Of a stretch of DNA of 52,754 bases, positions 12,219-37,724 are shown in pieces. Numbering within the stretch: position 1 is the stretch's first letter; every line of letters starts with the position of its first letter. The translations under genes and the position numbers were made by a program. The notes below the pieces were generated by a model, which saw only the letters and a list, made by a program, of their open reading frames with translations, did not search any database and was not told the origin of the DNA. The stretch lies in IMG/VR virus record IMGVR_UViG_3300028902_000450; one strand, 5' to 3'. This DNA is from a virus.

Positions 12219-13408
12219 GTCGCGCTTACCTGCGTAAATTTGATTTGCGTGGCGACGCCGAGCACGTGCAGCACCGTGCGCTCAATCATTCCGTACAAGC
12301 GATTCTCCAACCATTGTTTGGCGTAGGGATTGCGAACGCCGATAACCAATTCCGCGCGCTCGCGGTCGTAAGCCATCGCAAATGCAGTTTTGACCCACGT
12401 GTCGAACGTGGCTTTGGTCATTTGCAATTGCAGTTCCGCGAGCGCGGTGCTCCAAATCTCAACGGCGCGCGCGTCGGTGAGGGTTGGTTCCGGCGCATCG
12501 TTTGCAACCGGCTCCGCGAATTCGGGCACGCGCGCGGCGGGCGCATCCGGCGCGGAGTTGTCGGACGCCGGCGTTTGCAGTTCGCGCAAACGCGCGAGCC
12601 AGGTTTCGTTTGCCGCCAACCATTTGCGCCATGTGTCGCCATGCTCGCGGTCCTGTTTGTTCACGCGGAAAAGAAACTCCGGACATTTTTCGCCGTCCTT
12701 GATTTTGCTCACGGCATGAATCGCCGGTGAGCGAATCCCCTTGCCGAGCGGGGATTCGGCATACATGACCCACGCAATCATTTCGGCTTCAATGTCGGCG
12801 AGCGAATCGCCGCGCGCGAGCGCCGCGCGCACGGCGTGTTGGGAGGTGGCGCGTTTGCAGCCCCGCAAATAGGTTTCGATGAGGTCGTTCGCTTCGGACG
12901 GCAAAAGGTCAATGGCGGGTTTATGCGGACCGAGTTCGTCCGGTTTTGCGAAAGCGGAAAAATCGCCTTCCCGTCCGGTAGTGGTAGTAGTGGTTTGTAC
13001 TAAATCATCTGAAGAGGATATATATAAACTACCACTACTACCATTCGGGAAAGCGGAAAAATCGCTTTCGCCAAGCGCGCGCGGAACATCTGTGCGAATT
13101 TCGCCGGAATCCGCGCTCGCAAGCACCGGAAAGCCGGGCAAATGCAATTGCGCTCCGACGGACGTGAGAATCCAACCGGCGTAGCGTCCGAGCCGCGTGG
13201 CAAAGCCGTGTAAATCGCAGAGTAGGCGCATGGCGTGGGTGATTTCATCCTTGCCGTAATCGGTCATCAAGCACAACTGCGTGCGGTCGAGCGGCGTTGG
13301 GTGCGCGAGGTATAACGCGTGCAGGCACGAGAGCGGCGCGCCTTTCAGCGCGCGCAGTAAATTTATTTTGTGCGAGTCGCCGGGCAGAGTGACAGAGGTC
13401 GTAATCAT
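12215..13408 (-). CDS. Replication initiator-like protein with a C-terminal DnaA_N-like domain (397 aa)
   Basis: The C-terminus (IWSTALAELQLQMTKATFDTWVKTAFAMAYDRERAELVIGVRNPYAKQWLENRLYGMIERTVLHVLG) follows the DnaA N-terminal domain pattern. The N-terminus looks like a winged helix. ATG at 13408 after GAGAGG. Confidence 0.6.
   Translation of the reverse strand: MITTSVTLPGDSHKINLLRALKGAPLSCLHALYLAHPTPLDRTQLCLMTDYGKDEITHAMRLLCDLHGFATRLGRYAGWILTSVGAQLHLPGFPVLASADSGEIRTDVPRALGESDFSAFPNGSSGSLYISSSDDLVQTTTTTTGREGDFSAFAKPDELGPHKPAIDLLPSEANDLIETYLRGCKRATSQHAVRAALARGDSLADIEAEMIAWVMYAESPLGKGIRSPAIHAVSKIKDGEKCPEFLFRVNKQDREHGDTWRKWLAANETWLARLRELQTPASDNSAPDAPAARVPEFAEPVANDAPEPTLTDARAVEIWSTALAELQLQMTKATFDTWVKTAFAMAYDRERAELVIGVRNPYAKQWLENRLYGMIERTVLHVLGVATQIKFTQVSAT
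12948..13070. repeat. Ori-like composite palindrome inside the replication gene
   Basis: GCGAAAGCGGAAAAATCGCCTTC (12948-12970). Inverted arms TGGTAGTAGTGG (12982-12993) and CCACTACTACCA (13032-13043). AT-rich centre ggatatatataaa (13015-13027). Dyad GAAAGCG-gaaaaat-CGCTTTC (13049-13069). Confidence 0.8.
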
Positions 13409-14077: not shown

Positions 14078-14118
14078 AGCACAATAGTTTGGAACAGAAT
14101 TTCGGAACGGATGTTGTA

Positions 14119-14147
14119 TTGAAAGCGGAAAGTAAATTCGCGATAAT
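14119..14147 (+). promoter_or_regulatory. Sigma70-type promoter TTGAAA-17-GATAAT facing integrase 2
   Basis: Read directly. The upstream GTTGTATTGA is shared with the promoters at 25730 and 28147. The spacer contains GAAAGCGGAAA. Confidence 0.5.
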
Positions 14148-14435
14148 GACGCGCGACACTCCCGACGCTCACGCGGGCGAGGGATGGTCACTGTAGACCG
14201 CGTTGGTGTTGGCAGCACCGCGCGGTCATTTTTATTTATCGGGGGGGCAACATCGCCGTCCGTGATGGTGTTTTCGCAGACACGCACATCACGGAACGCG
14301 TTTCGTGATGCAATGTCACTCCCCCGACAGTTTGGGCAAACGCTGCCGCGCGGTCCGCCTGACCGCCGCGTTGACGTTTCCCCTGACGCGACATGTTCCG
14401 GTGTTGCCGGTCATGCGTCGCGTCATTTTTTTGCG

Positions 14436-15431
14436 ATGGTAAAAAAACAGAATACCTACATCGTTCCAGGAGTTTCGGACCCTATGCGACTGCGCGACGC
14501 CATTCATTTTTTTATTAGTGCACGCGTCCACACGGTCACACACAAAACTTTGAGAAACAATGAACTCTACTTACGTTCATTGACCGACTGTCTGGACAAT
14601 CCGTTCGTTAACGAAATCTCTTTGCACGACCTGCGCCGCTGGCGCAGCACGCTCTTTGAAAAACAGGAACGCTATCTGGCGCACAACCGCCGCGCGCCCG
14701 TTCGGGGCGGCTACAGCATCTACACCATCAAGGGGATGGTGGAGGCGGTGCGTCAGTTATTCAATTGGTTGAATCGGGAAGGATATTTGGAGACAAACGT
14801 AGCGCGGAAATTGGAACTGCCGACCCTGCCGGCGGGTCCGCCGAAAGCGATTACGCCGCGCGATTTGGAGAAACTGATTGAAACCGCGCGGCACTCGGCG
14901 ACCGTAACCTTGTCGGCGCGCAATGTGGCGTTGATTTTGTTTTTGCGCGATACCGGATGCCGCCTGTGCGGCGTCGCCGGCTTGCGCCTGGAACAACTCG
15001 ACACGCCAAACTGTCGCGCGCTGGTGTGGGAAAAAGGGCGGGGCGGTAAATCAAAAGCGCGGGCGGTCTTTTTTACGAAAGAATCGCAAGCGGCGCTGAA
15101 TCAGTGGCTTGCCGCGCGTCCGGCAGCGTTGCCGCTGCCGGGTGAAACACTTGACGACCACGTGTTCGTCGCCGAGCGTTATCCGTTCAAGCCGTTGACG
15201 GAAGAGGCGATTTATTGCGTCTTCCGCGCGCTAAAAAAAAGGGCGGGGATTACGGGGCGAGTGAATCCGCACTCGCTCCGGCACGCGCGGGCGAAAACGA
15301 TGTTGGAACACGGCGCGCCGTTGGGTGTGGTGTCGCGCGTGTTGGGTCACTCGGACATTCGCGTCACCGATGCGTACTATGGCGTTTATGCCGCGAGTGA
15401 GTTGCAGGAGCAATATAACAAGTACGCGTGA
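14436..15431 (+). CDS. Tyrosine integrase (XerC/D-phage type), ~331 aa
   Basis: LFLRDTGCRLCGVAGL (Arg), NPHSLRHARAKTML, LGHSDIRVTDAYYGVY (Tyr), with a SAM-like N-domain. The start could be 14436 or 14484. Confidence 0.85.
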   Translation: MVKKQNTYIVPGVSDPMRLRDAIHFFISARVHTVTHKTLRNNELYLRSLTDCLDNPFVNEISLHDLRRWRSTLFEKQERYLAHNRRAPVRGGYSIYTIKGMVEAVRQLFNWLNREGYLETNVARKLELPTLPAGPPKAITPRDLEKLIETARHSATVTLSARNVALILFLRDTGCRLCGVAGLRLEQLDTPNCRALVWEKGRGGKSKARAVFFTKESQAALNQWLAARPAALPLPGETLDDHVFVAERYPFKPLTEEAIYCVFRALKKRAGITGRVNPHSLRHARAKTMLEHGAPLGVVSRVLGHSDIRVTDAYYGVYAASELQEQYNKYA

Positions 15432-15527
15432 TTTGTCCGGGGCGTCGCCTAACTATTCCAGATGCTCCCTTCCGAGAGGTCTGTCTCGTCTCTTGGGCAC
15501 ATGCCCGACGCGGGCGCCCCGGACAAA
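15432..15527. repeat. 13-bp perfect inverted repeat TTTGTCCGGGGCG / CGCCCCGGACAAA separated by 70 bp, immediately 3' of integrase 2
   Basis: Read directly (15432-15444 and 15515-15527). The interior holds further short hairpins. Confidence 0.8.
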
Positions 15528-15610
15528 CTGTAAATTATCGCACACGGCGCAGTGGGGCACACTTTTGTTCTATCTGCGCTGCTCGTTGAATCGAGCAGCG
15601 CAAGATACAT

Positions 15611-15871
15611 TTGATTGTGAAACAAAAATCGGTGTCTGTCGCGCGAGCGGCGCAAAAGTCTTTGACCGCCAGCGGAGAATTTACTCCCGAAGAGCGGCGG
15701 GCTATCGCGTTGGCGATTCAAGATGCCCTGATTGAATTTATGGATTTGATCCCGCCGGATGTGTGGCGGTTGCCGCACATCACAGCGATACAGTTGGAGA
15801 ACAAAACTTCGTTGGCGCCGTTCATGGGGAAACGTTCGCGGACAAAGGTAATTGAGCAGCCGAAAGAGTGA
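15611..15871 (+). CDS. Hypothetical protein (86 aa)
   Basis: ORF of plausible composition downstream of integrase 2. Confidence 0.45.
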   Translation: MIVKQKSVSVARAAQKSLTASGEFTPEERRAIALAIQDALIEFMDLIPPDVWRLPHITAIQLENKTSLAPFMGKRSRTKVIEQPKE

Positions 15872-15873
15872 TT

Positions 15874-16071
15874 TTAGATTTGATTGAGCTGCTCGGGCGT
15901 CATTTTTCGCAAGGTGGCGGCATCACGTCGCATTTGTCGTTTGATTTGTTCTCGGCGTTTTAATCCGACTTTGTAAGTTCGCATTTGGACTCTGCCGATT
16001 TCAGCGCGGACAATGGCGCGAATGCGTCGCTCCTGGGCGTTGGTCAGTGGGCTAGAAGATAACTTTCGCAT
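15874..16071 (-). CDS. Hypothetical basic protein (65 aa)
   Basis: An ATG at 16071 begins an Arg/Lys-rich helical sequence. Confidence 0.45.
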   Translation of the reverse strand: MRKLSSSPLTNAQERRIRAIVRAEIGRVQMRTYKVGLKRREQIKRQMRRDAATLRKMTPEQLNQI

Positions 16072-16183
16072 GGTTTGTAATTCCTTTCTTTGAGAAATAC
16101 ACCAAACCGCGCGTGCGCTCTACAAAATATCCTTCCCTATTCAATTCTTAATGTGCGCCTGACAGGTCGTGCAAAAGAAAATA

Positions 16184-16237
16184 GGGACAAATGGGACAGT
16201 CGGCGTCTGATACACGCTGGCTGTTCTTTTTTGTCCC
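16184..16237. terminator. Bidirectional hairpin terminator
   Basis: Outer stem GGGACAA/TTGTCCC and inner stem ACAGTCGGCG/CGCTGGCTGT. TCTTTTTT follows on the plus strand and a U-rich run follows on the minus strand. Confidence 0.55.
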
Positions 16238-16245
16238 CTGAAGGA

Positions 16246-16491
16246 TTACTTTATTTTCGACGGAACCGGGCGCTGCGTTTTACGCATGAACTCAATCACG
16301 CTTTGCGTTGAAACCTTCGCGCCGGATGCTAATGTGGTGCGACTCGATTCTTGAATCTCACCGCGCAGCATCATGTTGTAAACAGTTTGGCGCGACAGGT
16401 TTAACAATCTCGCTGCCTCTTGAACCGTCAGTTCTTTCTTCTGCAATAAATTCATCTTTGCTTCATCCTTCATGGGGGGTGTTTTGACCAT
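16246..16491 (-). CDS. Excisionase/MerR-type HTH protein (81 aa); candidate switch regulator
   Basis: LTVQEAARLLNLSRQTVYNMMLRGEI matches the excisionase-family HTH. GGGAGG lies 6 nt before the ATG. Expressed from the leftward consensus promoter. Confidence 0.7.
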   Translation of the reverse strand: MVKTPPMKDEAKMNLLQKKELTVQEAARLLNLSRQTVYNMMLRGEIQESSRTTLASGAKVSTQSVIEFMRKTQRPVPSKIK

Positions 16492-16515
16492 AATACACCT
16501 CCCAATTCAAAAAGG

Positions 16516-16543
16516 ATTATACACCCGTTTTCAACGTTGTCAA
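16516..16543 (-). promoter_or_regulatory. Consensus promoter TTGACA-16-TATAAT (leftward)
   Basis: The minus strand reads TCTTGACAacgttgaaaacgggtgTATAATcc. Confidence 0.75.
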
Positions 16544-16559
16544 GATAAATTAGACACTG

Positions 16560-16588
16560 TTGACAACATAGACAACATCGGTTATAAT
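16560..16588 (+). promoter_or_regulatory. Consensus promoter TTGACA-17-TATAAT (rightward)
   Basis: The plus strand reads TTGACAacatagacaacatcggtTATAAT. Its -35 box and the leftward -35 box form the inverted repeat GTTGTCAA-N16-TTGACAAC. Confidence 0.75.
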
Positions 16589-16740
16589 CTCTCCATCAAA
16601 TAAAAACGCGCGGCACGAGTGCTATCAACACTCACACCGCGCTCATCCGGTCAGTGAAATGCCCACTGACGAGACTGAGCGAATTGTAGCATAGATTCGC
16701 TTGCAGAGAATGCCGGGACGGTGCCAGCGCAGAACGGGAG

Positions 16741-16755
16741 TTGTCTACAGACAAG
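16741..16755. repeat. Variant dyad TTGTC-TACA-GACAAG
   Basis: Inside the structured early leader. Confidence 0.7.
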
Positions 16756-16815
16756 GCGCGGCGCATCTGGTCAACAACCGGCGGGACTGCCCGAACGACG
16801 GTTCGGTGTATCGCA

Positions 16816-16866
16816 CAGTGGGCGTTTCACGACCGAAAGGTCAAGTGAAATGCCCACTGTTTTTTT
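16816..16866 (+). terminator. Intrinsic terminator/attenuator enclosing the RBS and start codon of the first rightward gene
   Basis: CAGTGGGCGTTTCAC (16816-30) pairs with GTGAAATGCCCACTG (16845-59), 14 of 15 Watson-Crick plus one G-U, followed by T7 (16860-66). Confidence 0.7.
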
Positions 16867-17254
16867 GAATCCCCCCGCGTCCGACCCTGCGCTGACCGCG
16901 CGGACGTTTTCGCAAAACCCCACCCTCTTTGCCGCGCTCGAACGCCTCAAAACGCGCGGCGCGCACGGCGTCAACACCGACGCCGAAGTGCCCGGCGGCA
17001 CGGATGCCAATGACCCGCAGCCGCTTGAGCCGACAAACTCCGTCCAACCCCTGCCCTATACCGGCATCACCTTTGCCCATCGCTATCAGGTGCATACCGT
17101 GACCGCCGACGGCACCCCTGCCGAAATCATCCATGTCGCTGCCGACGACATGTGCGATGCGATTCAAACCGCGATTGCCCAACTCGTCGCGCGTCATGCC
17201 GACGGCATTCGTGTCGTTGCGTGCCGCGAATTGAAACCGCGAGGGGTCGCATGA
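16850..17254 (+). CDS. Hypothetical protein (134 aa)
   Basis: MPTVFLNPP... is the internal ATG of ORF 16721-17254. The upstream part of that ORF is the structured leader. Confidence 0.55.
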   Translation: MPTVFLNPPASDPALTARTFSQNPTLFAALERLKTRGAHGVNTDAEVPGGTDANDPQPLEPTNSVQPLPYTGITFAHRYQVHTVTADGTPAEIIHVAADDMCDAIQTAIAQLVARHADGIRVVACRELKPRGVA

Positions 17255-35163: not shown

Positions 35164-35481
35164 ATGAGTACATTGCCTACATTGCCAAACGAAACAACAT
35201 TCCAAGTTGCGCCATTGCAGTTGGTGTATGCGGTCTGGATTCGTGGACACGGCTGGCTGAAAGAAAAAGACGACGACGCGCAAACCACGTTCGTGGCGTT
35301 CAGCCCCGAAGTCGCCGAATCCGCCGCGCGCTTGTGGGGCAGCGACGCAGAGGTATTGCCGTTCGACCAATCATTGCTCGACTTGGAACAAAAGTTTTTG
35401 CGGCGCGAACAAGAATTGCAGGCACGACGCGGCGTTATCGCGTGGTTAATCGCATGGCTGCACACTCCGCGCGATTCGTGA
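35164..35481 (+). CDS. Hypothetical protein (105 aa)
   Basis: Internal ATG (MSTLPTLPNE) of ORF 35041-35481. Confidence 0.5.
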   Translation: MSTLPTLPNETTFQVAPLQLVYAVWIRGHGWLKEKDDDAQTTFVAFSPEVAESAARLWGSDAEVLPFDQSLLDLEQKFLRREQELQARRGVIAWLIAWLHTPRDS

Positions 35482-35510
35482 CATCGGGTGCGCAGACATG
35501 CGAAAACAAA

Positions 35511-37724
35511 ATGGCATATTGGGCTGACGTTTCCAATCAATTGAATCGCGCGCAGCGGCAAGCGCAGTACGTGACGACGATGGCGGGCTCGTGGGCGGGC
35601 GGTCCGGTCAGCGACCCGGACCCATCGCTGTACGCGAACCAGGCGCGGCTCATGCAGCAGCTGTCGTGGGTCTATTCCGCGATTTCGCTCGTGTCGCAGT
35701 CTGCCGCGTCTCTCGCACAATTCCAAGTCCTGCAGCTGCGCGCCGAAACCAAAAAGCCGATTGTCAATCACGCGTTTGAACAACTCTTGCGCGCGCCGAA
35801 TCGTTATCAGTTCGATTCGCAGTTTGAGTTTTTCGAGGCGCTATTCGGTTTTTTGAAACTGAGCGGCAATTGCTATTTGTATCTGAACGCGCTTTCGCCC
35901 GAGCTGCCGCCTGCCGAGATTTATATTTTGCGCCCCGACCGCGTGATGGTCGTCCCGGACCGTCAAACCTTTGTGCGCGGTTACGTGTTCAATGTGGACG
36001 GCGCCGAGCTCGCGTTCGACCGCGATGAAATTGTGCATATCAAGGCGTGGCATCCGCTCAACGATTGGTATGGTCTCACCGCGATTGAGGCGCTTTCAAT
36101 GGCTGCCGAGACCGACCTGAAAGAAGCGGGTTGGAATAAGAACTTTTTCGACAAACAATTTGCGAAACCACAGGGCGCGCTCGCGTACAGCGACATGGTC
36201 AACGATACCGACTGGGACCGCATGAAAACCGAAGCGAAAGAAGAGCATGGCGGGACACAGCGGCGGCTGATGATGCTGCGCGGCGCGGGCAAGGGCGGCG
36301 TGCAGTGGCTACAGATGGGTTTGTCGCAAAAGGACATGGAATTCATCACCGGTCGCCAATTCAACAAAGAGGAAATTTACCAGGGACTTGCGCCGGGTCT
36401 CTTGCAAATGCTTGACAAAAATTCGACGGAAGCAAACAGCATCGCAGGCGAAAAGGTTTTCCGTGAATACACGCTATATCCGCTCTTGAAACGTGTGCAA
36501 GAAAAATTCACCGCGAGAATTTTACCGCGTTATGGGGACGCCAGCGCGGACGGCAGCGGGCTTGTCGGGGAGTTTGATGAAATTCGCGCGCGTGACCGCG
36601 TGCTCGACATGCAGGAACGCCAAGCATACGAACGCGTTCATACCATCGCTGAAGTGCGCGCGAAATTTGATAACGACGCGCCGCTGGGCGACGAACGGGA
36701 TGATCTGCTCGTCGCGCAGGCGCAATCGTTCAATCCGAACGCGTTTGCGATGACCACTACAAACGCGTGGAACGCGAACACGACGACCGACGCCTCGGAT
36801 GAGTCGGATGTAATCATCCGCACATCCGCCACCATGCCGCCGCAAGCTCCCAGTGTCCGCAACGCCGAGAACGCGGACGAAGCAGGAGACATGATTGACA
36901 AGAACGCGAGCAAAGACGAAGCAAAGGCAGGCAATCAAGACGGCTTGATGATTGCGCTCGCACTCCCGACGGGCGCGGCGCTCACGCTGCACCAACTCGC
37001 GCAAGAGACGTTCGGCGAAAACGCGGATGTGACTCCTTCCGATGAAATGCACATCACCCTTGCCTATTTTGGCAGCGCGGAACAAATGAATGTCTCGCGC
37101 GAAACGCTGACCGCGCTCGTGCGCGCGTTTGCTGCCGAACATTCGCCCATCAATGGCATGGTGAGCGGCGTCGGACGATTTACGCAAGTGGATGCCGACG
37201 GACGCAGCGCGTTCTATGCGTCGTTTGATTCGCCCATGCTGCCGCGGCTGCAAAGCGATTTGATAGAACTGCTCGACGGCGCGGGCGTGTCTGTGGACAA
37301 GACGCATGGTTTTACGCCGCACATCACGCTCGCGTATGCTCGAATTGGAGAACATTCGGACGCGAATTTTGATTTAGCGCAGTTGCATACGCCCAACACG
37401 CAAATCACCTTTGATGCCGTGACGCTCGCGTGGGCGGGAGAGTGGGACGCGTTCGCGCTGGGCGCAATTCCGATGCTCCTGCCGCATCCAAATGAGCCGA
37501 GCGACGAACAAAAGGCGTTCGCATCCGACATTGCCGCGTGGGAACGCAAAGCATTGAAACGAGTGCGCGAGCACGGCGCACTCGCCGATGCGCTCGAATT
37601 CAAATCGGACGCGCTCGCGCCGGCGTTGCTCCATTCCATTCGCGGCGCGCTCGAAGCGGCGACAACTGCGTTAGAAGTCAAAGCGATTTTTCAGAACGCG
37701 CGCGCGTGGCATTCCTATCCGTGA
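35511..37724 (+). CDS. Portal protein (HK97 family) fused to a C-terminal 2H phosphoesterase (LigT-like) domain (737 aa)
   Basis: Portal core: NHAFEQLLRAPN...GNCYLYL...IVHIKAWHPLNDWYGLTAIEAL...GGVQWLQMGLSQKDMEF. C-terminal domain with two HxT motifs, EMHITLAYFG and TPHITLAYAR. Start at MAYWADV. Confidence 0.8.
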   Translation: MAYWADVSNQLNRAQRQAQYVTTMAGSWAGGPVSDPDPSLYANQARLMQQLSWVYSAISLVSQSAASLAQFQVLQLRAETKKPIVNHAFEQLLRAPNRYQFDSQFEFFEALFGFLKLSGNCYLYLNALSPELPPAEIYILRPDRVMVVPDRQTFVRGYVFNVDGAELAFDRDEIVHIKAWHPLNDWYGLTAIEALSMAAETDLKEAGWNKNFFDKQFAKPQGALAYSDMVNDTDWDRMKTEAKEEHGGTQRRLMMLRGAGKGGVQWLQMGLSQKDMEFITGRQFNKEEIYQGLAPGLLQMLDKNSTEANSIAGEKVFREYTLYPLLKRVQEKFTARILPRYGDASADGSGLVGEFDEIRARDRVLDMQERQAYERVHTIAEVRAKFDNDAPLGDERDDLLVAQAQSFNPNAFAMTTTNAWNANTTTDASDESDVIIRTSATMPPQAPSVRNAENADEAGDMIDKNASKDEAKAGNQDGLMIALALPTGAALTLHQLAQETFGENADVTPSDEMHITLAYFGSAEQMNVSRETLTALVRAFAAEHSPINGMVSGVGRFTQVDADGRSAFYASFDSPMLPRLQSDLIELLDGAGVSVDKTHGFTPHITLAYARIGEHSDANFDLAQLHTPNTQITFDAVTLAWAGEWDAFALGAIPMLLPHPNEPSDEQKAFASDIAAWERKALKRVREHGALADALEFKSDALAPALLHSIRGALEAATTALEVKAIFQNARAWHSYP
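37287..37301. repeat. Degenerate dyad GTGTC-TGTG-GACAAG (13 of 15)
   Basis: In the portal 2H domain, same frame (VSVDK). It may be coincidental. Confidence 0.4.

Follow-up and report, generated by a model that had tools for sequence, protein, structure and literature searches.

A probable bistable leader RNA and its predicted antisense RNA at the early operon of a metagenomic phage

Introduction

The IMG/VR virus record IMGVR_UViG_3300028902_000450, a stretch of 52,754 nucleotides that is referred to as the window hereafter and that makes up nearly all of a metagenomic contig of 52.9 kb (JGI 3300028845), is a phage genome whose genes include those for the large terminase, the portal, a tail protein, a ParB-like protein and a tyrosine integrase, as well as a gene with a DnaA_N Pfam match. 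In its divergent control region, between a helix-turn-helix (HTH) gene of the HTH_17 family and gp1, the first gene of the rightward operon, lies a structured leader in which one segment (B) could pair with either of two copies of the same sequence (A and C), and a small RNA (sRNA) is predicted to be made from the opposite strand of its first part. Temperate-phage switches are usually described through protein repressors, and RNA-based phage immunity is known from few special cases, namely P4, P1/P7, N15 and P22 sar. Here, we analyze this leader and its relatives, and suggest, as the best explanation and one that we hold to be reasonably probable, that it is a bistable switch under countertranscript-driven attenuation of the pT181/pIP501 type, a class of control among which Anti-Q of pCF10 is also counted.

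Results and discussion

The control region and its leader

The features of the control region are listed in Table 1. The rightward promoter, P_R, drives gp1 and then a string of small genes, and its transcript would begin with the leader. A sequence-only reading of this DNA had described a leader of about 270 nt between a consensus promoter and an intrinsic terminator, and most of that description could be confirmed. The promoter was found at the expected distance, and the two arms of the terminator, the run of seven T and the ATG of gp1 were all present on reading the sequence, with the start codon being sequestered in the terminator form. The reading had placed both the start codon and the ribosome-binding region in the 3' arm; the former is indeed within the arm, whereas the Shine-Dalgarno (SD) sequence is located in the terminator loop. 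The duplicated 15-mer that it reported is an exact duplication at the positions given and is in fact 16 nt long: the direct repeat AGTGAAATGCCCACTG occurs at 16653-68 (A) and 16844-59 (C), and B (16815-30) complements it with one G.U pair. When up to three mismatches were allowed, four copies of the 16-mer could be found in the window, three of them at the leader locus, compared with 0.36 expected, and none of 100 shuffles reached four; the fourth copy (three mismatches, 50984-99) was taken as chance. The upstream copy has its own hairpin (GTCAGTG-aaatgcc-CACTGAC, 16650-70), and the further stems noticed between the copies proved to be genuine helices, designated P2, P3 and P4. The apical hairpin of P3 (16741-55), which covaries as RNA, is the TTGTC-N4-GACAAG dyad. 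The predicted fold of a 276-nt leader sequence had an energy of -121.6 kcal/mol (z = -6.07 against 200 dinucleotide shuffles). Finally, the suggestion that this attenuator matches no described family was borne out, as no Rfam family reached its gathering threshold in the whole window, and at E <= 10 nothing relevant was obtained for 16400-17100 except a sub-threshold match to SymR on the minus strand, which is discussed below.

Table 1. Features of the divergent control region and of the leader (window coordinates)
Feature	Position	Strand	Basis or remarks
P_R, rightward early promoter, TTGACA-17-TATAAT	16560..16588	+	12/12 consensus positions; predicted start A16595
Divergent leftward promoter, TTGACA-16-TATAAT	16516..16543	-	12/12 consensus positions; drives HTH_17 gene
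HTH_17 gene, 81 amino acids	16491..16246	-	Pfam HTH_17
Sense leader RNA, 272 nt	16595..16866	+	Predicted start to end of U-tract; fold z score, covariation
P1 hairpin / stem-loop 2 (SL2)	16608..16642	-	Intrinsic terminator of predicted antisense RNA, 16 pairs; U-run = plus-strand 16598-16607
Element A (core 16653-16668)	16650..16675	+	Local 7-bp hairpin (16650-70) or 5' strand of A-B antiterminator helix
Predicted antisense sRNA, ~79 nt	16598..16676	- (16676->16598)	Structure, covariation, R1 model; complements sense +2 to +82
P2 hairpin	16677..16702	+	Apical part bears predicted antisense promoter; length differs among relatives; covariation helix 6
Predicted antisense promoter, extended -10 TGCTACAAT (plus strand ATTGTAGCA)	16683..16691	-	Inside P2; invariant TAnAAT
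P3, long interrupted hairpin	16703..16790	+	Invariant bulge ACGGGAGU (16733-40) and U.GUCA (16768-73); helices 7-10
P4 hairpin	16791..16806	+	Invariant GACG tetraloop 16797-16800; 100% paired, 5/6 pairs compensatory
Element B (core 16815-16830)	16808..16833	+	3' strand of A-B helix and 5' arm of terminator
Terminator loop with SD sequence GAAAGG (16835-40)	16834..16843	+	GAAAGG(A) kept in 9/10 versions
Element C, terminator 3' arm (16844-60)	16844..16866	+	Holds gp1 ATG (16850-52); then U7 (16860-66)
gp1, first gene of rightward operon, 134 amino acids	16850..17254	+	Open reading frame (ORF); no Pfam or PHROG family

Relatives of the leader

Homologues of gp1 (n = 7, 48-95% identity) and of the HTH protein (n = 17) were used to define the family. 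Ten full-length and non-identical versions of the leader were collected (the window, L029, L015, L017, L018, L030, L024, L025, L057 and L059), which correspond to about six to seven distinct sequence groups; in addition, one partial (L058) and one divergent version (L062) were found. All versions share the same synteny of HTH gene, divergent near-consensus promoters, leader and first gene, and all relatives carry a near-consensus rightward promoter at the position equivalent to P_R. So far, the family has been seen in metagenomes only. No match to the leader locus was obtained by blastn against 50,697 phage records, protein-anchored scans of IMG/VR yielded nothing related (L001 being unrelated AT-rich DNA), and a scan of GTDB genomes with the HTH alignment returned nothing. 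A DNA pattern of the structure motif gave 26 matches in GTDB genomes, which is about the number estimated by chance and none of which fits the family profile, and no match in IMG/VR.

In L024-L027, where an inserted HNH gene parts the switch from gp1, the leader still has C and its U-tract, along with a remnant ORF of 22 codons. The preservation of the switch despite this insertion suggests that the leader acts as a self-contained module. At this site (2400-2460 in L024 and the equivalent positions in L025, L026 and L027), C opens the 22-codon ORF, whose stop codon overlaps the start of the HNH_3 endonuclease gene (TGATG), and a second terminator-like hairpin (AGCCCTTT...AAAGGGCT followed by T6) is found ahead of the HNH gene in L024-L027. 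It was also observed that the relative in L018 (1770-1954 of a 205-kb contig) adjoins two tRNA genes (53.6 and 47.6 bits) with no adjacent integrase, which is consistent with a prophage or remnant integrated at a tRNA locus.

Two mutually exclusive helices

The core shared by A and C differs among the versions: it is GUGAAAUGCCCACUG in the window, L029 and L015, GCAACGUGUCUGC in L017, CGAAGUGUCCGC in L018 and L030, and a variant of UCUG.GCAUGUCCACA in L024, L025, L057 and L059. In every version B is the complement of this core, and A, B and C change in concert across all ten, in agreement with the previous proposal that the upstream and downstream copies compete for one complement in a terminator/antiterminator choice. 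Predicted duplex energies ranged from -29 to -40 kcal/mol for A-B and from -26 to -35 kcal/mol for B-C (-27 to -35 and -25 to -35 kcal/mol, respectively, for cognate duplexes of shorter core segments). Cross-pairing of cores between the window/L029/L015, L017 and L018/L030 groups gave -6 to -24 kcal/mol, and L024, L025, L057 and L059 cross-pair almost as well as they pair with their cognates. These energies indicate that the sequences of A, B and C have diverged into no fewer than three specificity groups, with poor pairing between groups.

The consensus structure predicted by RNAalifold from eight of the versions is a long-range A-B helix that closes a three-way junction formed by P2, P3 and P4, with compensatory changes in 48 of its 87 pairs. 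For the A-B consensus structure, 93.4% of the cells were paired and 45 of 76 pairs had changes on both sides, a result that was reached by none of 500 shuffles (slid controls, 32-42%). Moreover, the A-B helix runs past the part that is duplicated in C (16670-75 with 16808-13) and has a compensatory change of its own there, from G-C to A-U at 16671/16812, which argues that A-B is not a by-product of the likeness of A to C. The B-C helix covaries as well, and in 10/10 versions a hairpin of 14-20 pairs is followed by a U-rich tract. Covariation in relatives had been named as a check in the sequence-only reading; with both helices covarying and the repeat kept in the ten versions, its outcome was positive. 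It should be noted that G.U cells occur mostly on the plus strand (12 versus 4 on the minus strand for A-B, 11 versus 2 for P2 and 10 versus 3 for P3), indicating that these are helices of the plus-strand RNA. The possibility of dyads acting at the DNA level, as a cruciform or operator, was rejected, since it is contradicted by this strand asymmetry and by the unconserved sequence of the P3 apical hairpin. The alternative between terminator and antiterminator is the best-supported part of our finding, with comparative analysis of the versions arguing both for the two folds and for their mutual exclusivity, and we regard a genuine switch in cis as very likely.

In the junction between A and B, 20 of 41 ungapped unpaired columns are invariant, compared with 34 of 133 paired columns, and the invariant unpaired elements comprise ACGGGAGU, U.GUCA, CG.GAC and the GACG tetraloop. 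Such bases might possibly serve a sensor, bind a protein, form tertiary contacts or act as pause signals. Two readings of ACGGGAG were discarded, one as the SD sequence of a conserved ORF and one as the partner in a pseudoknot with the C-run past the U-tract, because no consistent start codon or complement could be found across versions.

One explanation built on the invariant bases is that the ~135-nt junction closed by A-B would serve as an aptamer or as a domain to which a protein binds, and would thereby determine how stable the antiterminator helix is. A-B would be stabilized (the ON state) or disrupted by a ligand, by a protein of the phage or the host, or by RNA polymerase itself, and the antisense RNA would form a further layer of control or one without relation to it. 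The layout is that of an ON riboswitch, as the 3' strand of the closing helix is the 5' arm of the terminator, and the excess of invariant unpaired columns would be accounted for. However, the region matches no Rfam riboswitch or other family, there is no known candidate for the ligand or binding protein, the length of P2 varies by ~40 nt, and a conserved antisense gene already supplies a trigger. We consider such a sensor improbable. If it were true, the early operon would join a physiological signal and an antisense immunity RNA in one leader, as an RNA-level device for the lysis-lysogeny decision.

Folding order and default state

The sequence-only reading had also suggested folding of the leader by minimum free energy (MFE), both complete and during its synthesis. 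When transcripts were cut just past B, the A-B fold was predicted in 10/10 versions, and when A was made unavailable, B-C formed in 10/10 versions. For growing transcripts of the window, the MFE structure contained the A hairpin until a 3' end at 16820, A-B for ends between 16825 and 16855, and the terminator only from 16860, so that A-B precedes C. With the 3' end at 16833, A-B was better by 19.5 kcal/mol than any fold in which B was unpaired, and B-C has no free toehold once A-B exists. Given that A-B forms unaided before C is made and leaves no toehold, we infer that read-through is more likely to be the default state and that blocking of A would be the regulated step. This is opposite to the default termination implied by the sequence-only reading, as in the predicted folds A-B forms by itself as soon as B is made.

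Default termination would be needed by an autonomous attenuator in cis, in which the hairpin around A keeps A inactive until translation of a mini-ORF, or some other event, frees A and allows read-through. The full-length MFE structure of the window, which combines the A hairpin with the terminator, and the start codon found in A of all versions are in line with this idea. The mini-ORF itself (MPTDETERIVA) was pointed out in the sequence-only reading and is present in the window, but it does not behave as a functional leader peptide: its length varies from 6 to >60 codons across versions, it lacks an SD sequence, and it is unrelated past the fifth residue, only residues from A and its flank being shared. 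Its start codon is explained by the requirement that A match B. Furthermore, nascent transcripts reach A-B without help, and the minus-strand promoter and G.U-only terminator described below are not accounted for. Such autonomous control is therefore very improbable in our opinion.

A predicted antisense RNA

A gene for an antisense sRNA that covers the first ~80 nt of the leader, including A, was absent from the sequence-only reading and is suggested here by comparison of the relatives. In a scan of the region, the strongest terminator was found on the minus strand (16642->16608), with 16 pairs followed by GTTTTTATTT. When P1 was examined on the minus strand, 137 of 140 cells were paired, including 26 G.U; on the plus strand, 111 of 140 were paired and none was G.U. 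The difference is due to two or three central C.A mismatches that are present on the plus strand in 10/10 versions and that correspond to G.U pairs on the minus strand. About 40 nt upstream of this terminator on the minus strand, a -10 element TAnAAT (plus-strand ATTnTA) is invariant in 10/10 versions. It is preceded by TGn in 6/10 versions, and of the four versions without TGn, three have TATAAT and L057 has TACAAT. Full antisense promoters were detected by scan in L015 (TTGATT-17-TATAAT) and L062 (TTGACC-17-GATAAT), each of them ending 7 nt before the match of R1, a covariance model of the antisense sRNA. Another candidate, a minus-strand promoter at the conserved GGTCAA (a -35-like TTGACC), was rejected as no -10 element occurs at 16-18 nt.

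The predicted RNA is 77-83 nt long across versions and would consist of a short 5' tail, stem-loop 1 (SL1, containing A', the complement of A; 7-bp stem and loop of 6-7 nt), a spacer of 7-10 nt, the SL2 terminator and the U-run. In its alignment, 97.6% of cells were paired and 15 of 21 pairs were compensatory (0/500 shuffles), and R1 recovered all family members with 69-92 bits. The loop of SL1 matches the loop of the A hairpin, which is the usual geometry of kissing-loop antisense control. Comparative analysis thus points to conservation of the promoter, the stem-loops and the terminator, and we consider it likely that the antisense sRNA is real and presumably expressed. The divergent version in L062 (1160-1500, minus orientation) is matched by R1 with 69 bits and still contains the P1 terminator, the hairpin of A and a P2 that bears the antisense promoter; its downstream leader is shorter and different, with a terminator of its own (CCCTCTCGT...ACGAGAGGG and ATTTTATT) directly before the ATG.

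The match to SymR (RF01809) mentioned above scored 29.1 bits for the window, and one of 25.9 bits was obtained for L030, both below the gathering cut-off of 61. Conversely, R1 found E. coli symR exactly at its annotated coordinates, weakly (17.2 bits). It also found, with 43.2 bits, an RNA in the IMG/VR contig L065 (12716-12795, minus strand) that is antisense to the SD sequence and AUG of a SymE_toxin gene (12790-13080, plus strand; PF08845, 60.5 bits). The latter antisense RNA in the 5' untranslated region was not found by the Rfam SymR model at E <= 1, and the diversity of SymR-like RNAs may exceed what the Rfam family includes. Similar to SymR, the predicted phage RNA would be a cis-antisense RNA of 77-83 nt against the 5' leader of the sense mRNA, with a promoter just downstream of a sense-strand start codon, SL1 over the start-codon element, a spacer ending in UUAGC and a long terminator near the sense 5' end. 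Unlike in SymR, SL1 covers an SD-less duplicate of the real start, and the real start is located 190 nt further on, inside the terminator. The product of gp1 has no SymE_toxin or other Pfam match and is hence not SymE. A remote relationship of the antisense sRNA to SymR, rather than membership in that family, is probable.

This similarity raises the question whether the antisense RNA might work as SymR does and nothing else, that is, by blocking translation and/or triggering RNase III decay through the leader 5' end in cis or through C in trans, the A-B/B-C alternative being set otherwise or passive. The size and architecture of the sRNA and the matches in both directions described above are in favor of this explanation. 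In addition, A' complements C perfectly in the window (-31.8 kcal/mol), SymR covers the SD sequence of its target (PMC3874152), and L062 has the sRNA without the A/B/C triplet. On the other hand, in several versions the pairing of A' with C (-17 to -24 kcal/mol) is weaker than that of A with B and of B with C, A has no SD sequence and the ORF at A is unconserved, and C, when not free, is confined to a hairpin of 16 bp. It would also leave the conservation of A-B, its extension past the repeat and the constant U-tract after C unaccounted for. We therefore regard purely SymR-like action as unlikely, if less so than the other alternatives to countertranscript-driven attenuation.

Proposed mechanism of the switch

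A countertranscript-driven attenuator is expected to have an intrinsic terminator in the sense leader, a preemptor that pairs with the 5' arm of this terminator so that the two structures are mutually exclusive, and an antisense gene on the opposite strand that covers the preemptor. The terminator was found in 10/10 versions, A corresponds to the preemptor, and the antisense gene is present as judged from sequence evidence alone. Pairing of B (16808-33) with A (16650-75) would close the three-way junction and leave C and the AUG free, giving a read-through and translatable state, whereas pairing of B with C (16844-60) would give the intrinsic terminator with its U7 and bury the start codon, which would be the off state. 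Since A and B are transcribed before C, a naked nascent transcript would fall into A-B and be read through. The antisense sRNA would start from the extended -10 element in P2 (16691-16683, minus strand) and end at P1 and the U-run (16642-16598). Its complementarity to the leader would be perfect over the initial ~80 nt, in which A lies, and the loop of SL1 could kiss the loop of the A hairpin. If the antisense RNA bound while the ~150 nt between A and B were being transcribed, A would be sequestered and B would await C; the terminator would then form and the operon would be off for both transcription and translation. As the start codon lies within C and the U-tract is part of the coding sequence, the off state should also block translation. 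Convergent promoters ~80 bp apart would add transcriptional interference. As a proxy for the presumed effect of antisense binding on termination, B-C pairing was predicted in all ten versions when A was blocked. A role in immunity or timing may be presumed, and antisense attenuation probably backs up a protein repressor, for which the divergent HTH_17 gene is a candidate.

Several observations weigh against this explanation. Both RNAs are known solely from the sequences of ten related metagenomic versions, in about six to seven groups, and promoters and terminators were judged by sigma-70 and intrinsic-terminator rules that are assumed to hold for the host. The default ON state was deduced from equilibrium folds of growing transcripts and not from kinetics, and the full-length MFE structure was the terminator in 6/10 versions and A-B in 4/10. 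The antisense promoter of the window itself has a weak -35 element and depends on the TG extension. No obvious B complement of A was seen in L062, and the antisense module that is kept there without B points to a possible role of the antisense RNA independent of the A/B/C switch. Finally, a plain spacer or timer between A and B does not account for the invariance of half of the unpaired junction positions.

Neighboring features

A 17-nt inverted repeat, GTTTTCAACGTTGTCAA / TTGACAACATAGACAAC (16527-43 / 16560-76), covers both divergent -35 boxes, and AGACAAC-type repeats are close by. The region 16527-16576 is probably an operator of the switch region, and the HTH_17 protein is possibly its ligand. 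In the near-identical variants L003 (1704-2930), L004 and L008, an insertion sequence (IS) of ~1.25 kb lies between the two divergent promoters, just upstream of the -35 box of P_R (window ~16556-16559). It encodes a DDE_Tnp_1 transposase of 384 amino acids and has the ends AGGGCGCTGTCAAAG / CTTTGACAGCGCCCT and a duplicated AGACACTGTT on its flanks, and the leader is unaltered. An IS or miniature inverted-repeat transposable element as the source of the repeats in the leader was rejected, as the IS ends (AGGGCGCTGTCAAAG) are unrelated to the 16-mer and the element sits between the promoters.

The integrase module (the integrase gene with genes of 84 and 65 amino acids; window 14080-16240) is variably present or absent among variants (L004, L005 and L007), and without it the HTH gene directly adjoins the genes for the 151-amino-acid, 75-amino-acid, DnaA_N and ParB-like proteins. 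It may be that the phage occurs in an integrating and in a plasmid-like form. A promoter-like TTGAAA-17-GATAAT upstream of the integrase gene is followed by the hairpin GACCGCGTTGGTGTTGGCAGCACCGCGCGGTC and ATTTTTATTT (window 14121-14240, plus strand; L015 206-263). This hairpin resembles the terminator stem-loop of the antisense sRNA (R1, 22.9 bits, E 1e-4), its fold is not exceptional against shuffles (z = -1.3), and the element could be a second sRNA of ~85 nt or a terminator only. With regard to gp1, a Foldseek search against the PDB gave no match at E <= 0.001 for an AlphaFold2 model whose mean predicted local distance difference test score was 63.6, and its sequence had no match in Pfam or PHROG. 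Another observation concerns the portal ORF of 796 amino acids (window 35334-37724, plus strand), in which a C-terminal extension (residues ~520-710) matches PHROG families labelled RNA ligase.

Comparison with known systems

The order of A, B and C on one strand, with two direct target copies flanking a complementary element, is that of P1 c4 and P4 CI. In P4 CI, P1/P7 c4 and N15 CA, the immunity RNAs make transcription stop prematurely within the leader of an early operon or an antirepressor operon, and the downstream target copy overlaps a translation start. One could thus imagine that a B-carrying RNA of the same strand is processed from the terminated leader and acts in trans on A and C to bring about termination, especially as the arrangement mirrors seqA-cI(seqB)-seqC of P4 and a1b1-c4-a2b2 of P1 (PMC4825925). 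However, the Rfam models C4 (RF01695), c4-a1b1 (RF03163) and isrK (RF01394) found nothing in the window or in nine related loci, although in the same run the control contig L065 scored 82, 45 and 71 bits with them, respectively. B is engaged in a cis helix of about -30 kcal/mol in every predicted fold, nothing like an acceptor stem for RNase P could be seen, and an independent antisense gene is conserved. Immunity of the P4/P1 type hence seems to us hardly probable at this locus. Whereas the RNAs of P4, P1 and N15 are trans-acting products of sense-transcript processing, B of the leader would act in cis under countertranscript-driven attenuation, with the trans factor coming from the opposite strand.

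Antisense-driven attenuation has been described for pT181, pIP501, pAMbeta1 and icsA/RnaG (PMC2879508). We found no phage example of countertranscript-driven attenuation described in the literature, and attenuation is absent from a 2025 review of phage-derived sRNAs. If our explanation is true, a plasmid-style countertranscript attenuator would be added to the means by which phages gate their early genes, with transcription and translation being controlled together. The poorly cross-pairing specificity groups are the pattern expected of an immunity or incompatibility determinant, and would amount to attenuator/antisense pairs that are orthogonal by nature, such as are employed in synthetic RNA circuits. 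The sense leader and the antisense sRNA would also provide RNA databases with a well-covarying and unannotated RNA family, and there is a possible evolutionary link between regulatory antisense RNAs of phages and SymR-type antitoxins. The logic itself is known from plasmids; what would be new, and seems to us fairly probable, is its application to a phage early operon by an uncatalogued RNA family.

With pT181, pIP501 and pAMbeta1 the phage locus shares a leader preemptor (A) whose pairing partner (B) is the 5' arm of an intrinsic terminator (B-C), as well as a DNA-binding regulator encoded divergently or nearby. A small and constitutively terminated antisense RNA that complements the preemptor region, and the loop-to-loop contact of hairpins, are further similarities, which are predicted in the phage. 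There are also clear differences. Unlike in the plasmids, the leader precedes the early operon of a temperate phage and not a rep gene, and the RNAs have no sequence or Rfam relationship to the plasmid RNAs. The 3' arm of the phage terminator holds the start codon and its U-tract is coding, so that transcription and translation would be gated together. A and B are ~135 nt apart and separated by a conserved three-way junction with invariant unpaired bases, and the predicted antisense promoter is placed within a hairpin of this junction.

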